Below are positions 2 to 30,808 of a stretch of DNA of 64,000 bases, one piece after another. The stretch lies in assembly GCF_003790525.1 (NCBI RefSeq), contig NZ_CP033635.1; one strand, 5' to 3'. Position 1 is the first letter of the stretch. Each line of letters opens with the position of its first letter. Source of the DNA: Escherichia coli. Lineage in GTDB: Bacteria > Pseudomonadota > Gammaproteobacteria > Enterobacterales > Enterobacteriaceae. The notes beneath the pieces were generated by a model. It did not search any database. It worked only from the letters and a program-made list of their open reading frames with translations, and was not told the DNA's origin. The position numbers and the translations under genes were made by a program.

Positions 2-484
2 TTGATTGGTTCGCTCTCCGGCGCAGCACCGCCAGTGATCGGCTACTGTGCGGTAACCGGCGAGTTCGATAGCGGCGCAGCAATCCTGCTGGCTATCTTC
101 AGCCTGTGGCAGATGCCTCATTCTTATGCCATCGCCATTTTCCGCTTTAAGGATTATCAGGCCGCAAACATTCCGGTACTGCCGGTGGTGAAAGGCATTT
201 CGGTGGCGAAGAATCACATCACGCTGTATATCATCGCCTTTGCCGTTGCCACGCTGATGCTCTCTCTTGGCGGTTACGCTGGGTATAAATATCTGGTGGT
301 CGCCGCGGCGGTGAGCGTCTGGTGGTTAGGTATGGCCCTGCGCGGTTATAAAGTTGCTGATGATCGAATCTGGGCGCGCAAGCTGTTCGGCTTCTCTATC
401 ATCGCCATCACTGCCCTCTCGGTGATGATGTCCGTTGATTTTATGGTGCCGGACTCGCATACGCTGCTGGCTGCTGTGTGGTAA
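2..484 (+). CDS. cyoE: Protoheme IX farnesyltransferase (heme O synthase), C-terminal part; 5' end lies outside the window
   Basis: Translation is a polytopic membrane protein matching the CyoE C-terminus; stop TAA at 482-484 followed by a terminator hairpin. Confidence 0.9.
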
Positions 485-500
485 TACAACCTCTCTATAA

Positions 501-524
501 AAAAGGTGCTACGGCACCTTTTTT
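501..524 (+). terminator. Rho-independent terminator downstream of cyoE
   Basis: Seen in sequence: stem ggtgc (505-509) / gcacc (514-518), loop tacg, flanked by an A-run 5' and a T-run (519-524) 3'. Confidence 0.6.
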
Positions 525-537
525 ATTGTCTGAGATC

Positions 538-592
538 AGAGATACGGCTAATAACCGTATCTCTTGACAGAGTGAGCATATGCACATAAATT
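538..592 (+). promoter_or_regulatory. Putative sigma70 promoter with overlapping palindromic operator for the toxin-antitoxin operon
   Basis: Perfect 10-bp inverted repeat agagatacgg (538-547) / ccgtatctct (555-564) with 7-bp spacer, abutting a consensus TTGACA (564-569); 17-bp spacer; TAAATT (587-592). A second weaker acgg-N7-ccgt palindrome lies at 599-613. Confidence 0.4.
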
Positions 593-668
593 AATCACAC
601 GGTTGATAGCCGTATTATGCATGAGATCGACTCCCTACGATTTCATTCAGTTAATCAAAGAGGTCATA

Positions 669-980
669 ATGCCTGGAAAAACAGTCGCTCTACCCGATAT
701 CGATAAAACGCTGAAAAATGCGCGGGTTGAACTCAAAACCAGCCCCGACGCCAAAAACAAACTTCGTGAAGCTGCGCAAGCCGTTGGGGTAGATTTAAGC
801 GCTTTTATTTTGAGCGCAGCTATGGAACGCGCCGAAAGTGTGCTTGATAACCAACGTCGCCGTGAGCTTTCGAATCAAAGCTGGGAACTGATGAACCAAC
901 TCATCGCTGAACCTGCTCAACCGACGCTCGCCCTCAAGGCGTTAATGAAAAGGAAAAACAGCGATGGTCGACAAGCATGA
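669..980 (+). CDS. Type II antitoxin, ribbon-helix-helix DUF1778/TacA-like (partner of GNAT toxin)
   Basis: Small protein with the characteristic AFILSAAMERAE segment; ATG at 669 preceded by aagagg (658-663). The ORF track start at 603 is probably an over-extension. Overlaps the downstream toxin by 17 nt. Confidence 0.7.
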   Translation: MPGKTVALPDIDKTLKNARVELKTSPDAKNKLREAAQAVGVDLSAFILSAAMERAESVLDNQRRRELSNQSWELMNQLIAEPAQPTLALKALMKRKNSDGRQA

Positions 981-1506
981 AGAGATTACTCTGCCCATAG
1001 TCCTCTCCTGTAATTATCAGTCTGATATTACTTATCCTGGGCAAAAACAGTTTGATTGCGGTAACCCTGTTATCGATAAATTTGTACGCGCATCGCTAAA
1101 GAAAAGTGTGCGTAATAGCGACTGTGCTGCTAAAGCTCTTATTGACAGACAAAGTGGTGAACTGATTGGCATCTGTACTTTTACGGCATATTCGCTGGAA
1201 AAACAACGCGTTTCTGGCGTCCTTCAGGGTTCACAACCTTCAGAGATTGGTGTTGTCAGATTAGTCATGTTAGGGGTAGCGCGGAAATATCAAAAGCGGG
1301 GCTTTGGTCAGGACCTACTATGTGATTTTTTTGAACATGTAAAAATAATTCACCGGGCATTACCAATTAAAGGGGTTTATCTTGATGCTGACCCTGCCGC
1401 CATTAACTTTTATACTCGCCTCGGCTTTGTTCAGCTTTCAGCGAGGCCCAATGTTTTCGGTGCTGTACCGATGTTTTTAGCGATTCAGCATATTCTCGCG
1501 GCTTAG
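964..1506 (+). CDS. GNAT-family acetyltransferase toxin (TacT/AtaT/ItaT-like, tRNA-acetylating type)
   Basis: 180 aa with the QFDCG motif typical of GNAT toxins, an acetyl-CoA binding signature (QKRGFGQ) and C-terminal FYTRLGF; translationally coupled to the upstream antitoxin. Confidence 0.7.
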   Translation: MVDKHEEITLPIVLSCNYQSDITYPGQKQFDCGNPVIDKFVRASLKKSVRNSDCAAKALIDRQSGELIGICTFTAYSLEKQRVSGVLQGSQPSEIGVVRLVMLGVARKYQKRGFGQDLLCDFFEHVKIIHRALPIKGVYLDADPAAINFYTRLGFVQLSARPNVFGAVPMFLAIQHILAA

Positions 1507-1561
1507 ATTATTATCGCCTCCGGCCAGGGCTAGTTTTGCCTCAGCCGGGGACTGAGCAGCG

Positions 1562-2497
1562 TTACCACTTTTGTTCAATTGCCCCCGCTTTCAGCAACTC
1601 CACATCCTTGCCGTTAATGGTTGCCGTTGCGGCAACGATTGTGGTCCTTACAGTTGCACAAGATTTTCGCTCAAATTCCGGTTTATAAAGAATTAGAGAC
1701 GAATTACTGGTAAATGAATCAAATATGTAATCAGTAAAGCTAATATTCAGCCGGTTTAAACCGAAAGGCGCGAAGCCAACCGTTTGGTTAATCTCCTTAC
1801 CGGATGGGCTACGAATGCTGAATGTCACGCGAAGATTGGCCACTTCGCCTAATTTATTGGTGGTGGCGAAGAGGCTATCCATGCAGGAAAAACCTTTATC
1901 TAAAAAATTATCCCGCATCCCAGAACGGGTAACCGTGATCACGGGTAACGTATCGTCAACCGTTTTTCTGTCAATCATGTCTTTTCGACATGTAGCCAGA
2001 AAGTCTTCCGGACCACCATAAATGTGGACACCTTTATCAAGATATTCCTTCGCTTTCTTACAATCTACCTCAACATACTGACCATTGGCGTACATCATGC
2101 CCAACCTGGACCATGCTAAATTCACACCGTATTGCGCGGCCTGATTAAATAGTGCATACGCTTTGGCATAATCCACCCGCACCAGCTCACCGTCGTAGTA
2201 GATACTCCCCAGCGCTAACGGAGCTTCTCTATCACCGTGTTTAGCGGCTAACTCAAACCATTTAATCGCTTCCTGAACATCAGGTTTGGTATCAAAGCGA
2301 GGCTGATAATATTCCCAGCCTAACAGGCTCTGCGCGTCGACATCTCCCAATTCAGCCATTTTATGCAGTCTATTTATAACATCGGGCGCAGGTTGACCAC
2401 CGTATATGCTGTCATACAATTCATGCGCTTTCTCGCTTGCCACCACGCATGGTGAAACTATTAGCATTAAAGAAAATAATATTCTTTTAGTTAACAT
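1562..2497 (-). CDS. Secreted Sel1-repeat (TPR-like) protein with an uncharacterised C-terminal domain
   Basis: Start chosen at ATG 2497 (aaagg Shine-Dalgarno upstream), giving MLTKRILFSLMLIVSPCVVA as a signal peptide. Several Sel1-like repeats (LGW, LALGSIYYDG, LAWSRLGMMYANG) are followed by a ~140-aa region with no recognised motif. Confidence 0.65.
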   Translation of the reverse strand: MLTKRILFSLMLIVSPCVVASEKAHELYDSIYGGQPAPDVINRLHKMAELGDVDAQSLLGWEYYQPRFDTKPDVQEAIKWFELAAKHGDREAPLALGSIYYDGELVRVDYAKAYALFNQAAQYGVNLAWSRLGMMYANGQYVEVDCKKAKEYLDKGVHIYGGPEDFLATCRKDMIDRKTVDDTLPVITVTRSGMRDNFLDKGFSCMDSLFATTNKLGEVANLRVTFSIRSPSGKEINQTVGFAPFGLNRLNISFTDYIFDSFTSNSSLILYKPEFERKSCATVRTTIVAATATINGKDVELLKAGAIEQKW

Positions 2498-2903
2498 GTA
2501 TACCTTTATGTTCTCTCTGTCATATATTTCCATAATAATTAACCACCAAACATCCATTTAATGAATAAATACAGTACCATAAAGGCCCAAGTAATAAGCA
2601 CACATTTAACCTGAAACATTATCATCGATGTCACCAAATCGTTTATTTAGTGAGATAAAAATAGCATGTTCGCAAGATAAAAAATGCACATAGCAATCAA
2701 GAAATAATATTATTACTTTTGATGTAAAACTATTTAGCTTTAAGAATAATTTTTTCAACATATAGAGCATTCATTTTATGAATGCAAAATAAACATACCT
2801 GACACACAAACTATTCTCCTCTGTAATATTTTCTCATTAACACTCTGTTTACCCAACATGCGCTCCGCACTACACTATGTGGGCATTTTTTTAAGAGGTG
2901 GTA

Positions 2904-4268
2904 ATGAACGATTATAAAATGACGCCAGGTGAGCGGCGCGCGACCTGGGGTTTAGGCACCGTTTTCTCGTTGCGCATGCTGGGCATGTTCATGGTTCTGC
3001 CGGTTCTGACCACGTACGGCATGGCTCTGCAAGGTGCCAGCGAAGCATTAATCGGTATTGCCATTGGTATTTATGGTCTGACTCAGGCCGTTTTTCAGAT
3101 TCCGTTTGGCCTGCTTTCAGACCGCATTGGTCGCAAACCATTAATTGTCGGTGGGCTGGCGGTGTTTGCCGCCGGTAGCGTTATCGCTGCGCTCTCTGAC
3201 TCCATCTGGGGAATTATTCTGGGCCGGGCGCTACAAGGCTCCGGTGCGATTGCCGCTGCCGTTATGGCGCTGCTTTCCGATCTTACGCGCGAACAAAACC
3301 GCACCAAAGCGATGGCGTTTATCGGCGTGAGCTTTGGCATTACCTTTGCCATTGCGATGGTGCTTGGCCCGATCATCACTCACAAACTTGGGCTGCACGC
3401 GCTGTTCTGGATGATCGCTATTCTGGCAACAACCGGCATTGCGTTGACCATTTGGGTTGTGCCCAACAGTAGCACTCACGTACTTAATCGTGAGTCCGGA
3501 ATGGTGAAAGGCAGTTTCAGTAAAGTGCTGGCGGAACCGCGGTTGCTGAAACTCAACTTTGGCATTATGTGTCTACACATGCTTCTGATGTCTACGTTTG
3601 TTGCCCTGCCCGGACAGCTGGCTGATGCGGGGTTCCCGGCGGCTGAACACTGGAAGGTCTATCTGGCGACGATGCTAATCGCCTTTGGCTCGGTCGTGCC
3701 TTTCATTATCTACGCTGAAGTTAAGCGCAAAATGAAGCAAGTCTTTGTCTTCTGCGTCGGATTGATCGTGGTTGCGGAAATTGTGTTGTGGAACGCACAA
3801 ACGCAGTTCTGGCAACTGGTGGTCGGCGTGCAGCTTTTCTTTGTAGCGTTTAATTTGATGGAAGCCCTTCTGCCTTCACTTATCAGTAAAGAGTCGCCTG
3901 CAGGTTACAAAGGTACGGCGATGGGTGTTTACTCCACCAGCCAGTTTCTTGGCGTGGCGATTGGCGGTTCGCTGGGCGGCTGGATTGACGGCATGTTTGA
4001 CGGTCAGGGCGTATTTCTCGCTGGCGCAATGCTGGCCGCAGTGTGGCTGGCAGTCGCCAGTACCATGAAAGAACCGCCGTATGTCAGCAGCTTGCGCATT
4101 GAAATCCCGGCGGACATTGCCGCAAACGAAGCGTTAAAAGTACGTTTGCTGGAAACTGAAGGCGTCAAAGAAGTGTTGATTGCAGAAGAAGAACATTCAG
4201 CGTATGTGAAAATCGACAGCAAAGTGACGAATCGCTTTGAGGTTGAACAGGCAATTCGCCAGGCATAA
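2904..4268 (+). CDS. yajR: MFS-family inner membrane transporter YajR
   Basis: MNDYKMTPGERRATWGLG N-terminus, 12-TM MFS core plus C-terminal soluble domain; ATG at 2904 with aagagg upstream. Confidence 0.9.
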   Translation: MNDYKMTPGERRATWGLGTVFSLRMLGMFMVLPVLTTYGMALQGASEALIGIAIGIYGLTQAVFQIPFGLLSDRIGRKPLIVGGLAVFAAGSVIAALSDSIWGIILGRALQGSGAIAAAVMALLSDLTREQNRTKAMAFIGVSFGITFAIAMVLGPIITHKLGLHALFWMIAILATTGIALTIWVVPNSSTHVLNRESGMVKGSFSKVLAEPRLLKLNFGIMCLHMLLMSTFVALPGQLADAGFPAAEHWKVYLATMLIAFGSVVPFIIYAEVKRKMKQVFVFCVGLIVVAEIVLWNAQTQFWQLVVGVQLFFVAFNLMEALLPSLISKESPAGYKGTAMGVYSTSQFLGVAIGGSLGGWIDGMFDGQGVFLAGAMLAAVWLAVASTMKEPPYVSSLRIEIPADIAANEALKVRLLETEGVKEVLIAEEEHSAYVKIDSKVTNRFEVEQAIRQA

Positions 4269-15993: not shown

Positions 15994-16479
<486 letters not shown>

Positions 16480-16593
16480 TTACCCTGAACTGACGATACA
16501 ACAAAGGCGCAACGCTTTTGAGATAAAGGATCGATGCTTTCACTGCTTTTACCCTCTACCATTAGGCTAATTGCGACGAGAAAGGGACGACCT

Positions 16594-16722
16594 ATGAATA
16601 CTAACGTTTTTCGACTGCTCCTGCTGGGAAGCCTGTTCAGCCTTAGCGCCTGTGTGCAGCAAAGCGAAGTGCGGCAGATGAAACACAGCGTCAGCACACT
16701 GAACCAGGAGATGACGCAACTC
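16594..16722 (+). pseudogene. yajI: 5' fragment of lipoprotein gene yajI, interrupted by an IS200/IS605-family element
   Basis: MNTNVFRLLLLGSLFSLSAC lipoprotein signal; the frame continues into IS-derived sequence after codon 43 (MTQL, 16711-16722). Confidence 0.75.
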
Positions 16723-16733
16723 ATTGACATCCT

Positions 16734-16753
16734 CCACGCCCTGAAGGACGTGG
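16734..16753. repeat. Subterminal hairpin at the tnpB-proximal end of the IS element (right-end type)
   Basis: ccacg / cgtgg stem with loop ccctgaagga, about 11 nt inside the inferred end. Confidence 0.6.
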
Positions 16754-16766
16754 ATCCCTGCTACGT

Positions 16767-17975
16767 TCAGGCTGTCGCCTGAATCATTTCGGTGGGTTCC
16801 TGCTTCAACGGGCGGCCTGACTGCACCATCCCTCCACAGGCAAGAACGGCGTGCCCCGCCGCTAAAATGTTACGAGCGCCATTTACATCGGCGTTCGCTG
16901 TATATCCACATACCTGGCATCTGAATTGACTTTGTGACAGGCGATTTTCTTTCGCTGTATGACCACAGCACGTGCAACGCTGGCTTGTGTACGCTGGCGG
17001 AACAGCAAGCACCTGACCGCCACGCCAGAGCTGCTTGTACTCAAGCTGGCGGCGCATTTCATACCAGCCCTGATCCAGTACCGAACGGTTTAAACCTGAT
17101 TTTGCCCGGACATTGCGTCCCGGCTGGCTGACCGTACCCGCTGCTGACTTTGACATGTTGCTGACCTTCAAATCCTCAATGACTATCATTGCGTGGTTTT
17201 TGCTGACGGTCGTTGTGACTTTGTGAAGGTAGTCCCTGCGGATATTTGCGATACGGGAATGCAGTCGCTGTATTTTGCGTTTCTGCTTCTGCCAGTTATT
17301 GCTGAATTCGACCTTGCGGCTTAACTGTCGCTGAAGTCTCGCCAGCGTCTTCTGGTTTTTCTGAAAACTGTTTACAGGCTCAAAGACTGTGCCATCTGAC
17401 AGCGTGGCGAGTTTAGCCACGCCAGCATCCAGCCCGACCATTGATGCTGAAGGGTGAACCGGAGTGGATACTTCACTTTCTGTCTGAATACTGATGTACC
17501 ACTTACCGCAGGACTGGCTGACAGTGACATTTTTCACAACACCCGTGACCTGGCGGCTGTTCCGGTAGCGCATCCAGCCCAGTTTCGGCAGAAAAATACG
17601 GCTGTTTTCCTGATCGAGCTTAACGCCCTGCGGGTAGCGGAATGCATCATTCTGTCCCCGCTTTTTGAATCGGGGAAAAGCAGCCCGCTTCTGGAAGAAG
17701 TTTTTGTAAGCCCGCTCAAGGTCTTTCAGTGACTGTTGCAATGGCTGTGAGGGCGAATCTTTAAGCCATTGCGTTCCAGTGGCGTTTTTCCACTCAACCA
17801 GCCAGGAAGCCATTTTCCCGTAAGGGATGTATTTATTACCGGCCTCATGATTCTCATTCTGAAGCGCCAGAGCACGATTGAAAACGAAACGACATGCGCC
17901 TGCGAAGCGCCTCATTTCATGCTCCTGTTGACCACCGGGTCTTAACTGGAATTTAAATGCCTGTAGTCGTTTCAC
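16767..17975 (-). CDS. tnpB: TnpB (OrfB) RNA-guided endonuclease of an IS200/IS605-family element
   Basis: 402 aa; RuvC-like motifs ([23 protein letters not shown]) and a C-terminal CxxC...CxxC zinc finger; N-terminal KFQLRP...RFVFNRAL helix; GTG start at 17975. Confidence 0.88.
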
Positions 17976-18045
17976 AGGTCAAATTATATTTTGGTCTGTG
18001 AAAAAAGAAACCGATATCCGGCGTGGAAGGCATTGTGTTTTCCTG

Positions 18046-18420
18046 ATGCATGTTCACCTGGTCTTTGTCCCAAATACCGACGCCAGATTTTTGACCATGA
18101 CGCGACAGAAAAACTACGCACTTACTTTTCAAATGTATGTGCTGATTTTGAAGCTGAACGGGTTGAAATGGATGGCGAACCAGATCACGTCCATTTGTTA
18201 ATTAACTATCCTCCCAAACTGGCGATATCCAGTCTGGTAAACAGCCTCAAAGGTGTATCGGGTAGGTGACTGCGACGAGATCGACCAGATATTGCAGTCA
18301 GGTATTACTACAAAGGCGTTTTGTGGAGTCCTGGCTATTTTGCCAGTAGCTGCGGAGGTGCGCCAATATCCGTCATCCGCCAATACATTGAACAACAGCA
18401 AACACCTGGTCAGGTGGAAA
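18046..18420 (+). pseudogene. tnpA: IS200-type HUH (Y1) transposase tnpA, disrupted by at least two frameshifts
   Basis: Conserved segments are split across three frames: MHVHLVFVP (frame of 18046), PKYRRQIF...EPDHVHLLINYPPKL...SLKGVS (frame of 17991) and WSPGYFASSCGGAPISVIRQYIEQQ (frame of 18321). The first shift coincides with the aaa run at 18071-18073. Confidence 0.75.
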
Positions 18421-18434
18421 ACCGCGCCTTATAT

Positions 18435-18454
18435 CCCCGCCCTGAAGGACGGGG
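18435..18454. repeat. Subterminal hairpin at the tnpA-proximal end of the IS element (left-end type)
   Basis: ccccg / cgggg stem with the same ccctgaagga loop as at the other end, about 19 nt inside the inferred end. Confidence 0.6.
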
Positions 18455-18472
18455 TTTTACGGCGCACCGGAT

Positions 18473-18880
18473 AAAGAAACCGTCAAAATCACTCAGCAAA
18501 ACAGGCTGAATGCAAAATCCAGCAGTGGGGTTTACCTTCTGCCTGGAGCGAAAACACCGGCAAGACTGGAAAGCCAGATCGGTACTTTACGTATGTCGCT
18601 AGTGAATATTACGCATGATACAGATGGCACCACCCTGACGCTACGTATTCAGGGCGAGTCGAATGACCCCTTGCCCGCATTCAGCGGAACTGTTGAATAT
18701 GGGCAAATTCAGGGAACAATAGACAACTTTCAGGAAATCAATTTGCAGAATCAATTGATTAATGCCCCTGCCAGCGTCCTCGTCCCCAGCGATGTTGATA
18801 TTCCGTTACAGTTAAAGGGGATTTCTGTAGAACAGTTAGACTTTGTACGTATCCACGACATTCAACCTGTTATGCAGTAA
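18473..18880 (+). pseudogene. yajI: 3' fragment of yajI downstream of the IS insertion
   Basis: Frame reads ...ETVKITQQNRLNAKSSSGVYLLPGAKTPARLESQIGTLRMSLVNITHDTDG... to a stop at 18878-18880; out of frame with the 5' fragment because of the insertion. Confidence 0.7.
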
Positions 18881-19178
18881 ACGTATAGCGGGGCGATTTT
18901 GTGCGTCCCGCAACATCTTTTCCCGTCATTTTGTTACTCCGCTTACATCACCTGGATTGATAGTAAAAGTTTGCAACAAGGGTGAAAGTCAGTACAATCC
19001 CCGCCCGAATGTGTGTAAACGTGAACGCAATCGATTACGTAAATGATAGAACTGTGAAACGAAACATATTTTTGTGAGCAATGATTTTTATAATAGGCTC
19101 CTCTGTATACGAAATATTTAGAAACGCAATTTGCGCCTTTTTCACTCCCGCAAGGGATTTTCAAACAGTGGCATACAT

Positions 19179-20063
19179 ATGAAAAAAACATTACTGGCAG
19201 CCGGTGCGGTACTGGCGCTCTCTTCGTCTTTTACTGTCAACGCAGCTGAAAACGACAAACCGCAGTATCTTTCCGACTGGTGGCACCAGAGCGTTAACGT
19301 TGTCGGAAGCTATCACACCCGTTTCGGACCGCAGATCCGCAACGATACCTACCTTGAGTACGAAGCATTCGCTAAAAAAGACTGGTTCGACTTCTATGGT
19401 TATGCGGATGCGCCGGTATTCTTCGGCGGTAACTCCGATGCAAAAGGTATCTGGAACCACGGTTCTCCGCTGTTTATGGAAATCGAACCGCGTTTCTCCA
19501 TCGACAAACTGACCAATACTGACCTTAGCTTCGGTCCGTTCAAAGAGTGGTACTTCGCGAACAACTACATTTACGACATGGGTCGTAATAAAGATGGTCG
19601 CCAGAGCACCTGGTACATGGGTCTGGGTACCGACATCGATACTGGTCTGCCGATGAGCCTGTCCATGAACGTCTATGCGAAATACCAGTGGCAGAACTAT
19701 GGCGCAGCGAACGAAAACGAGTGGGACGGTTACCGTTTCAAAATTAAATACTTTGTGCCGATTACCGATCTGTGGGGCGGTCAGCTGAGCTACATCGGCT
19801 TCACCAACTTCGACTGGGGTTCCGATTTAGGGGATGACAGCGGTAACGCAATCAACGGTATTAAGACCCGTACTAATAACTCTATCGCTTCCAGCCATAT
19901 TCTGGCTCTGAACTACGATCATTGGCACTACTCTGTCGTAGCTCGTTACTGGCACGACGGTGGTCAGTGGAACGACGATGCAGAACTGAACTTCGGCAAC
20001 GGCAACTTCAACGTTCGCTCTACCGGCTGGGGTGGTTACCTGGTAGTAGGTTACAACTTCTAA
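19179..20063 (+). CDS. tsx: Nucleoside-specific outer membrane channel Tsx
   Basis: 294 aa with signal peptide [22 protein letters not shown] and beta-barrel ending ...[10 protein letters not shown]; the track ORF begins at an upstream TTG. Confidence 0.93.
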
Positions 20064-20535: not shown

Positions 20536-20850
20536 TTACCAGTGACGGCGAGGTTCCATCAGCTGATGAAGAATGCGCGCAATGAGAATGTCATCGACTC
20601 TTATAACGTAATAAACAGTGTGAAACCTAAATGCGATCTTCTTTACCTCTGGAATCGCATCATAGTCTTGCCCTATCTCGGGCATTTGAGAGAGTGTATC
20701 CAGAAAAATGCCGAGAGAGTCGGTATAGCGATCCGCCTGCTCCTCACCAAACTTTCCCAGCGTGTAGTCATAGATCCCTCTGAAATCTTCAACAGCTTTT
20801 CCGCTAAGCTTATACACGATGTTTTTGCTTCCTTTCTGCTGCGATATCAC
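20536..20850 (-). CDS. ParE/RelE-superfamily type II toxin
   Basis: About 100 aa with a ParE-like profile (KNIVYKLSGKAVEDFRGIYDYT ... RFHTVYYVIRVDDILIARILHQ); only in-frame start is GTG at 20850, overlapping the antitoxin 3' end by 41 nt, so the start is uncertain. Confidence 0.65.
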   Translation of the reverse strand: MISQQKGSKNIVYKLSGKAVEDFRGIYDYTLGKFGEEQADRYTDSLGIFLDTLSQMPEIGQDYDAIPEVKKIAFRFHTVYYVIRVDDILIARILHQLMEPRRHW

Positions 20851-21052
20851 GAAGCGTCATCGAACTTTCACCGCTCTCAAGACCTTCAATAACAGCATTT
20901 CTGACAGCTTCATCCCTGGATTCTTGTTGTTCCAATAGACGAAGCGCTGAACGCATTACTTCACTGGCCGAGCCATAACGACCAGACTGGACCATCCGTG
21001 TAATAAAACTATCTAATTGTTCGCCAACGCTTACTGAGGTAATTTTGCGCAT
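20810..21052 (-). CDS. ParD/CopG-like ribbon-helix-helix antitoxin
   Basis: 80 aa, ...SFITRMVQSGRYGSASEVMRSALRLLEQQE... typical of the ParD antitoxin family; ATG at 21052 with ggagat Shine-Dalgarno; immediately upstream of the ParE-like toxin. Confidence 0.7.
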   Translation of the reverse strand: MRKITSVSVGEQLDSFITRMVQSGRYGSASEVMRSALRLLEQQESRDEAVRNAVIEGLESGESSMTLRDIAAERKQKHRV

Positions 21053-28993: not shown

Positions 28994-30808
28994 TTAGTTG
29001 ATCCACACCGTAGCCGAAATGGCAGGCAAAGCCAGAATCCCGTCTGTCAGTTGCCCATGGCCTTCTTTGCGTTGCCATTGCGCAACATTAAGCAACGGTG
29101 ACGCGGGTAGCACCACTTCACAGGCTTCTCCACGGTTGATTGCCACCAGTACACGCTGCTGATTCAGCACGCGGCCAAATACCACCACGTTATCTTCCGC
29201 ATACAGCACCTGACAGCCGCCACGACGCAGCGCCTGACTTTTCTTACGCAGCGCAATCATTCGCTGGTACAGCGCGAATAACGCCGTATCCTGCTTTTCC
29301 ACCTGCCAGGGGAACGGTTTACGGCAAAACGGATCGTTTTTACCATCCAGCCCCACTTCATCACCGTAATAAATGCACGGTACACCAGGCCAGGTGAACA
29401 ACCAGACCACCGCCAGCGGCAGGCGCGCAATATCCCGACCGAGCAGCGTTTTAAATCGCGCAGTATCGTGGCTATCGAGCTGATTAAACATACGCAGTTG
29501 CTGTTGATGAGAAAGTCCGGCGCGGTAATTATCCATCCAGGCCATACAGGTTTGGGCGTCAATTTGCTGCGGATCATAAGAGATGTCGGTATTGGCAAGA
29601 AATCCCCACAACGGGAATGTGAAGCCGCGATAGTTCATGGCGGCATCTTCCACATCGGCCTGTAACCATTGCCGTGCATCGCCAAAATGCTCTCCAACGA
29701 TATACGCTTCCGGCTGGGTTTCTTTCGCCGCTTCGGTGATCCCGGCAACGTGCTGCAAATTATTGCGCGCCCCACCCGCTTCCCCCAGCATATGCACCAC
29801 ATCCAGCCGCCAGCCGTCCATATTCCACGGCGCTTTCAGCCAGTGGCGGACAATACTGTCTTCCCCGCGATAAATTTCATTCACCAGACTTTCCGACTGA
29901 TAATCCAGTTTCGGCAAGCTGGCATAGCCCAGCCAGTCGAGCGCCGTGCCATCGTCACTAAACGAGTACCAGTCGCGCCAGGGCGATTCGGGGTTGTGAC
30001 AAGCACCACCCGTGCCACGATTGTGCCTGTCAAACCAGGCATGGGAATCGCCACTGTGGTTAAACACGCCATCCAGCACCAGCCGCATTCCCAGCTGCTG
30101 CGTATGGTGTCGCAAACGCAGCAACGCTCCGTCGCCGCCAAACTGCGGATCGACGTGGCGATAATCCTCTGTATCGTATTTATGTACGCTGGGGGCTTTA
30201 AACACCGGGTTAAGATACAGCGCCGTCACGCCGAGCTTTTTCAGATACGGCAGTTTTTCGCTGATACCGTCCAGATCGCCGCCATAGAACGTTGATCCGC
30301 CCGCCTGCGCCGTGACCGGTTCATCCCAGTCACGCAATATGATCTCTTGTCCGGCTGCGTGATGGTAATAAACATGATCCTGTTCAGCTTCACGAGGAAG
30401 ACTACGGGCGAAACGATCAGGGAAGATCTGATAAAAAATCTGATCCGCAGCCCATTGTGGGCCGATATCCGGGACATCGACAGCAAACTGCTCCAGTCGT
30501 GCTGGCGGCATTCGGCTGAAGCCCTGCGGTGTAAACCAACGCTGGCGATCGTGCCACAGTAATTTGAAACTATAACGCCGCCGAGGTTGCCCGCTGGAGA
30601 GATCGATCGCCGCCCGCCATGCGGTAACGCCAGGCTGCGGCTGACTGCGCTGCTTATGCATCGCTACTGACGTTTCTTCGTTGTCGTGTTCTGTACGCAG
30701 CATAATGCGCTGCGGTGGGTCTTCGCCCGTCAGCCACAGTGTAATAAGCAGTTGATCTTTGCTTTGTTTAACAAATGGGGGCACCGGCAGGTGCCATGCA
30801 TTTAACAT
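28994..30808 (-). CDS. malZ: Maltodextrin glucosidase
   Basis: About 604 aa GH13 enzyme, [45 protein letters not shown]... Confidence 0.93.

Follow-up and report, generated by a model that had tools for sequence, protein, structure and literature searches.

What is left of a mobile element once its transposase has decayed, and can the RNA-guided nuclease that it encodes outlast the loss? The question is raised by a locus in the window—the whole 64,000-nucleotide (nt) stretch of Escherichia coli DNA analysed here—in which yajI, a lipoprotein gene lying between nrdR and tsx, is split by IS609, a 1,747-bp insertion sequence of the IS200/IS605 family that carries tnpB and the remains of tnpA. IS609 entered 3′ of a minus-strand TTTAT without target duplication and destroyed yajI; the insertion is old and inherited, and the tnpB open reading frame (ORF), both subterminal hairpins and an RNA scaffold have been preserved after the decay of tnpA. 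The reading that we prefer, and hold to be probable, is that of an old IS609 insertion with a decayed tnpA and an apparently functional TnpB/omega-RNA module, a function that we infer from homology with the TnpB proteins of ISDra2 and ISGst.

An IS609 insertion in yajI

Over 2,287 bp, the yajI region is 100% identical to that of E. coli SMS-3-5 (NC_010498.1), and more than 20 further complete genomes carry the same sequence. In the RefSeq annotation of SMS-3-5, yajI (DUF3251) is entered as a pseudogene in two pieces, tnpB as an intact ‘RNA-guided endonuclease InsQ/TnpB family protein’ and tnpA as ‘frameshifted; internal stop’. The 5′ fragment of yajI (16594–16723, plus strand) encodes the signal peptide and lipobox and extends to codon 43 plus 1 nt; its collinearity with K-12 yajI ends at 16723, beyond which, as a first-pass annotation of the window had described, the frame opened at 16594 runs into foreign sequence. 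It reads 19 foreign codons before a stop at 16782. The 3′ fragment (18471–18880, plus strand) holds codons 44–179 plus the stop, as defined by comparison with the empty site, and both fragments are pseudogene pieces in the annotation of the Prokaryotic Genome Annotation Pipeline (PGAP). The first-pass annotation had yajI resume at around 18473 in a different frame: the change of frame stands, because the length of the insert is 3n+1, and the resumption point moves to 18471.

The limits of the insert (16724–18470) were set from the empty sites of K-12 and strain 88-3493 and from eight further E. coli copies, which occupy five other loci in the chromosome. Joining 16594–16723 to 18471–18880 restores an open yajI of 540 nt and 179 codons, and the 44-nt junction reconstructed in this way is found exactly in the intact yajI of strain 88-3493. 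Among 5,426 complete E. coli genomes, the junction was matched in 1,894, with one or two mismatches in 1,892 of these; the two matches that were fetched, 88-3493 and Ecol_316, both read ATAAA at the site, which is TTTAT on the minus strand. The uninterrupted junction in other strains therefore identifies an insertion without target duplication and without scar, and the YajI lipoprotein is almost certainly lost.

A transposon-adjacent motif (TAM), 5′-TTTAT-3′, lies directly 5′ of the left end (18471–18475, minus strand). Across six independent insertion sites, the five bases at this position are TTTAT at five and CTTAT at one, and thus IS609 inserts 3′ of TTAT. The K-12 yajI site reads TTGAT, with Gln45 in place of Lys45, so the insertion must have entered a TTTAT-type yajI allele.

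The family assignment made in the first-pass annotation can be narrowed to IS609: over about 1,746 bp the insert is 97–98.5% identical to copies whose tnpA is named by PGAP (‘IS200/IS605-like element IS609 family transposase’). The top strand of the element is the minus strand of the window; read along it, the TAM is followed by the left end (18470), tnpA (facing away), tnpB and the right end (16724). The two genes are divergent, with their start codons 7 bp apart. Both ends have the features of IS200/IS605 elements, with subterminal hairpins on one strand and without terminal inverted repeats. The right-end hairpin, CCACGTCC-TTCA-GGGCGTGG (16733–16754, minus strand), is also helix 8 of the RNA model described below, with covariation in four of its nine pairs, and is probably in addition the single-stranded DNA hairpin recognised by TnpA. 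The left-end hairpin, CCCCGTCC-TTCA-GGGCGGGG (18435–18454), lies on the same strand and gives a weak, partial match to the covariance model.

IS609 is widespread in the species. A near-full-length copy is present in 4,858 of the 5,426 genomes, including K-12 (insQ), and the yajI insertion itself in 340. Carriers of the yajI insertion differ by 1.9–4.2% in the flanks and by 1.55% in IS609, and the insertion is therefore as old as the split of the major E. coli lineages. Outside the species, an IS609-like element on its own makes up whole contigs of 1,752 and 1,753 bp in Candidatus Erwinia dacicola and the Plautia stali symbiont, ending at the same right-end boundary; such single-element contigs suggest that the assemblies of these insect symbionts contain many collapsed copies.

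The TnpB protein and its RNA scaffold

The insQ-type tnpB (16767–17975, minus strand) is an open frame of 402 codons with a GTG start. Its product contains the Pfam domains HTH_OrfB_IS605 (PF12323), OrfB_IS605 (PF01385) and Cas12f1-like_TNB (PF07282), with E values of 6e-14 to 5e-34, and aligns end to end with ISDra2 TnpB (8exa, E 1e-53). In this alignment, Asp183, Glu267 and Asp363 correspond to the catalytic Asp191, Glu278 and Asp361 of ISDra2, and the zinc finger is complete (Cys334/Cys337 and Cys353/Cys356), which bears out the earlier description of a 402-residue TnpB retaining its RuvC motifs and zinc finger. A zinc-finger lesion that we considered in the K-12 InsQ, C336Y, was rejected, as the ligands are Cys334 and Cys337 and position 336 is variable among relatives. 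A promoter scan for tnpB and for the RNA turned up no convincing sigma-70 site. A literature search for IS609 together with TnpB yielded only a screen that purified an IS609 TnpB, and no functional work on the E. coli element.

The omega-RNA scaffold is delimited by comparison with other genera. Of 57 related loci fetched, 27 have a complete 3′ end, and in all 27 the sequence after tnpB stays conserved as far as GAGGATGTCAA, past which no relationship remains; this shared end followed by divergence places the right end at 16724. The predicted scaffold of 147 nt (16724–16870, minus strand) takes in the final 104 nt of tnpB and extends to the right end, within the interval of about 16723–16900 on the minus strand that the first-pass annotation had proposed. 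An alignment of 21 sequences yields a comparative structure of 49 pairs in eight helices, in which 98.1% of the cells are paired and 9 of the 49 pairs have changed on both sides. None of 500 shuffled controls attained the observed pairing and covariation, and sliding the partners by 1–3 columns reduced pairing to 39–49%. Covariation extends to helices 3 and 5, which fall within the tnpB ORF, and to helix 7, which spans the tnpB stop codon, so that the coding sequence also carries an RNA structure. The long-range helix 2 joins the last bases of the scaffold, GGAUGU (16727–16732), to ACAUUU (16865–16870). Folding of the single sequence gave z = −2.5, with a minimum-energy fold partly unlike the comparative structure, and the latter is preferred.

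A covariance model, R1, was built from 17 non-Escherichia sequences only. Searched against the 64-kb window, it gave one strong match, exactly at the scaffold (16870–16724, minus strand; 164.4 bits, E 4.7e-41), and all 44 of its base pairs are standard in the yajI copy. A second, very weak full-length match on the minus strand (29066–29228; 10.8 bits, E 0.35) is probably due to chance. Within E. coli, one pair is polymorphic: 16831/16811 is G–C in the yajI copy and in that of strain fS10a, A–U in six E. coli copies and an A–C mismatch in K-12. The pair states coincide with the residues of the TnpB tail encoded by codons 382 and 389, Gly382/Pro389 as opposed to Glu382/Ser389, and the polymorphism among E. 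coli copies reads as compensatory.

The predicted guide, 5′-TGAGTTGCGTCATCTC-3′ (16708–16723, minus strand), is antisense to yajI and lies directly 3′ of the right end, where the first-pass annotation had expected it, in yajI sequence just outside 16723; the position follows from the right-end boundary of the 27 relatives and the length of 16 nt was inferred from ISDra2 (PMC10097598). This site is the sole exact copy of the guide in the window. At the occupied locus the match is preceded by GTCAA rather than by a TAM, and the chromosome is therefore safe from cutting. A terminator-like hairpin with a T-rich tail (16686–16701, minus strand), also antisense to yajI, lies 23–38 nt beyond the right end; it is weak, with 8 such sites in the region against 2.6 expected, and may determine the 3′ terminus of the guide transcript.

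Decay of tnpA and the state of the nuclease

The Y1 HUH transposase gene tnpA (17983–18470, plus strand) is a pseudogene with four lesions: ATT replaces the ATG start (17983–17985), 1 bp is deleted between 18069 and 18070, an in-frame TGA nonsense codon stands at 18267–18269, and the native stop is lost through CAG in place of an ancestral TAG (18411–18413). Correction of the frame brings back the HUH motif (HVHLL) and the tyrosine region (YIEQQ) of intact copies. The intact TnpA of Serratia, Morganella, Yersinia, Klebsiella indica, Pantoea and E. coli H15 (WP_000604932.1) has 143 residues and ends in YIEQQQTPG before the stop. The first-pass annotation was thus right that tnpA is broken, although not into three frames: there are two, produced by the single deletion, plus the nonsense codon and the start and stop changes.

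Owing to the CAG, the tnpA frame continues past the left end and enters the flank. This change is common to most E. coli IS609 copies, which PGAP flags as ‘incomplete; missing C-terminus’; the relatives in other genera and H15 keep TAG. Among the yajI carriers, strain 98222 has the same tnpA lesions as the window, and fS10a is without them and has a different nonsense codon instead, from which it follows that the transposase gene was lost at least twice after the insertion. The TTA-to-TGA change at 18267–18269 also occurs in the K-12 copy, at another locus, and is absent from the yajI copy of fS10a, a distribution that would require either parallel mutation or gene conversion from one copy to another. 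Since its transposase decayed, IS609 in yajI has been non-autonomous.

The fate of the nuclease gene can be set against this decay. Across nine E. coli IS609 copies, the pooled pairwise ratio of non-synonymous to synonymous polymorphism (pN/pS) is 0.27 for tnpB and 0.92 for tnpA, values drawn from few and non-independent pairs; they fit selection that continues on the nuclease, with none on the transposase.

The rival that survives best, possible in our judgement although we doubt it, is that the whole element is a dead relic: tnpB would be drifting neutrally along with tnpA, which already has four lesions, its ORF would be open for want of time, and no functional ribonucleoprotein would be made. 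By our estimate, a 1.2-kb ORF would fairly often remain open by chance after about 1% divergence per lineage. Several observations weigh on this side and against a working module. Comparison with 38 relatives revealed private substitutions at two near-invariant positions of TnpB, E67G (Glu in 33 of 38) and K223E (Lys in 34 of 38, with Lys234 at this place in ISDra2), in addition to the private residues I299V and His19; E67G and K223E could reduce or abolish TnpB activity. ‘Intact’ thus describes this TnpB at the level of its motifs, and the active nuclease of the first-pass annotation is a prediction. The corresponding ISDra2 residues, Glu67 and Lys234, are not mentioned in the cryo-electron microscopy paper or in the mutational-scanning preprint. 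By our own count from variable columns and protein differences, the private changes on the window branch are four non-synonymous and two synonymous, a proportion compatible with relaxed constraint. In one other yajI carrier, tnpB is truncated at residue 385 (S386*). Finally, a search of 16000–19500 with Rfam gave no hit at the gathering score, with HgcC at 23.8 of 50 bits, RAGATH-18 at 28.1 of 44.9 and sot0042 at 17.0 of 88.

The points on the other side lead us to keep the preferred reading of an apparently functional module. The low pN/pS of tnpB beside that of tnpA speaks against neutral drift of the whole element; the catalytic and zinc-binding residues are all present; every pair of the R1 model is standard in this copy; and S386* falls in the C-terminal tail, a part that ISDra2 TnpB can do without (PMC10097598). 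The three sub-threshold Rfam matches are all on the minus strand within 16711–16894 and all belong to TnpB-associated RNAs, RAGATH-18 having been described as a TnpB guide RNA (PMC11061315). Filing the scaffold under any of these families was nevertheless rejected, as the scores are below gathering and the likeness is one of position and partial structure only.

Two further rivals are far less probable. The host might have co-opted TnpB and its RNA for regulation or defence, in the manner of TldR-type derivatives, as could be argued from the survival of TnpB beyond tnpA and from the presence of IS609 at conserved loci in most E. coli genomes. Exapted TldR-type proteins, however, are nuclease-dead, and here the Asp–Glu–Asp triad is intact, tnpB still belongs to an element that retains its two ends and two hairpins, the guide consists simply of flanking yajI sequence and the insertion is limited to its 340 carriers; we regard such domestication as very improbable. 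Equally hard to credit is the proposal that the pairing at the right end is only the single-stranded DNA hairpin of TnpA, with no RNA involved: helix 8 is indeed the canonical right-end hairpin and has a similar counterpart at the left end, but helices 3, 5 and 7 covary, with five pairs changed on both sides, and lie far from the cleavage site without a known role for TnpA, many G–U pairs on the minus strand would be C–A on the other strand, and the nearest Rfam models are those of TnpB-associated RNAs.

A predicted nuclease without a transposase

The ‘peel-and-paste’ and TnpB mechanisms are taken as published (PMC8612924, PMC10055086 and PMC10097598). On the preferred reading, TnpB would bind an omega-RNA composed of the scaffold (16870–16724) and the guide drawn from the yajI flank (16723–16708), and the complex would cut DNA in which TTTAT is followed by TGAGTTGCGTCATCTC, the arrangement of the empty yajI site. 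At the occupied locus, TAM and target are kept apart by the element, which would make it immune. As tnpA is dead, no empty site arises from the yajI copy itself; the nuclease would act only if the TnpA of another IS609 excised the element, or if an intact TTTAT-type yajI entered the cell, and cleavage would in both situations help the insertion to be retained or copied. Given the intact alleles that match the junction in 1,894 genomes, this target exists in nature.

Three known systems put the locus in context. The K-12 IS609 (insQ, between ydcO and ydcL) shares 97.8% nucleotide identity over 1,746 bp, the ends, the divergent layout, the 402-residue TnpB and the TGA codon in tnpA; the yajI copy differs in its site, in the ATT start and 1-bp deletion of tnpA, and at 14 TnpB residues, E67G and K223E being private to it. 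ISDra2 of Deinococcus radiodurans (PDB 8exa and 8h1j) has, besides full-length homology and the same catalytic and zinc-finger residues, a guide RNA that covers the 3′ end of tnpB together with the right end, last scaffold nucleotides that pair far upstream (a pseudoknot there, helix 2 here; PMC10097598) and a dispensable C-terminal protein tail that overlaps functional RNA (PMC10097598). It differs in its TAM, TTGAT as opposed to TTTAT/TTAT, and in its scaffold of 116 nt as opposed to a predicted 147 nt, and in gene layout, tnpA being divergent from tnpB in the yajI copy. ISGst of Geobacillus stearothermophilus (PMC10055086) likewise provides TnpB elements that lack a working tnpA, keep conserved ends and direct their guide to the scarless donor joint, and tnpA is found nearby for only about 25% of tnpB genes (Meers et al., PMC10055086); in contrast, the yajI copy retains a tnpA pseudogenised in place, so that its decay can be read directly, and the host and TAM differ.

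SMS-3-5, identical to the window across yajI, has IS609 at three places in its chromosome by sequence search. Two common IS609 sites were inspected in this genome: ydcO–ydcL is empty and the TetR gene beside ytfB is intact. A ParD/ParE-type toxin–antitoxin pair lies between yajD and secF in SMS-3-5 (about 20536–21052); in K-12 these two genes are presumably adjacent, without such a pair. The SMS-3-5 ydcO is split by IS4 (NC_010498.1, 1745117–1747800).

A more ambitious proposal, to which we give little credence, is that the module serves as an allele-specific drive or exclusion device, which would cut incoming TTTAT (Lys45) yajI alleles arriving by conjugation or transduction and so block reversion or convert the allele. 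If this were true, TTGAT (Gln45) alleles such as that of K-12 would escape through their changed TAM, and the persistence of the insertion on yajI backgrounds that differ by 2–4% would be explained.

The insertion itself is already known: it is annotated in RefSeq and is an ordinary case of a type that has been studied in depth. Because IS609, TnpB and omega-RNAs are established, as is the frequent occurrence of tnpB genes that lack a functional tnpA, the discovery value of the locus is small. Its modest value is as a clean natural example, spread over 340 genomes, with at least two routes of tnpA decay, purifying selection on tnpB and a compensatory RNA pair as they appear from these comparisons. 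With both cleavable TTTAT and TAM-variant TTGAT empty alleles present in E. coli, yajI::IS609 may offer a natural test of whether TnpB biases inheritance after the transposase has been lost.

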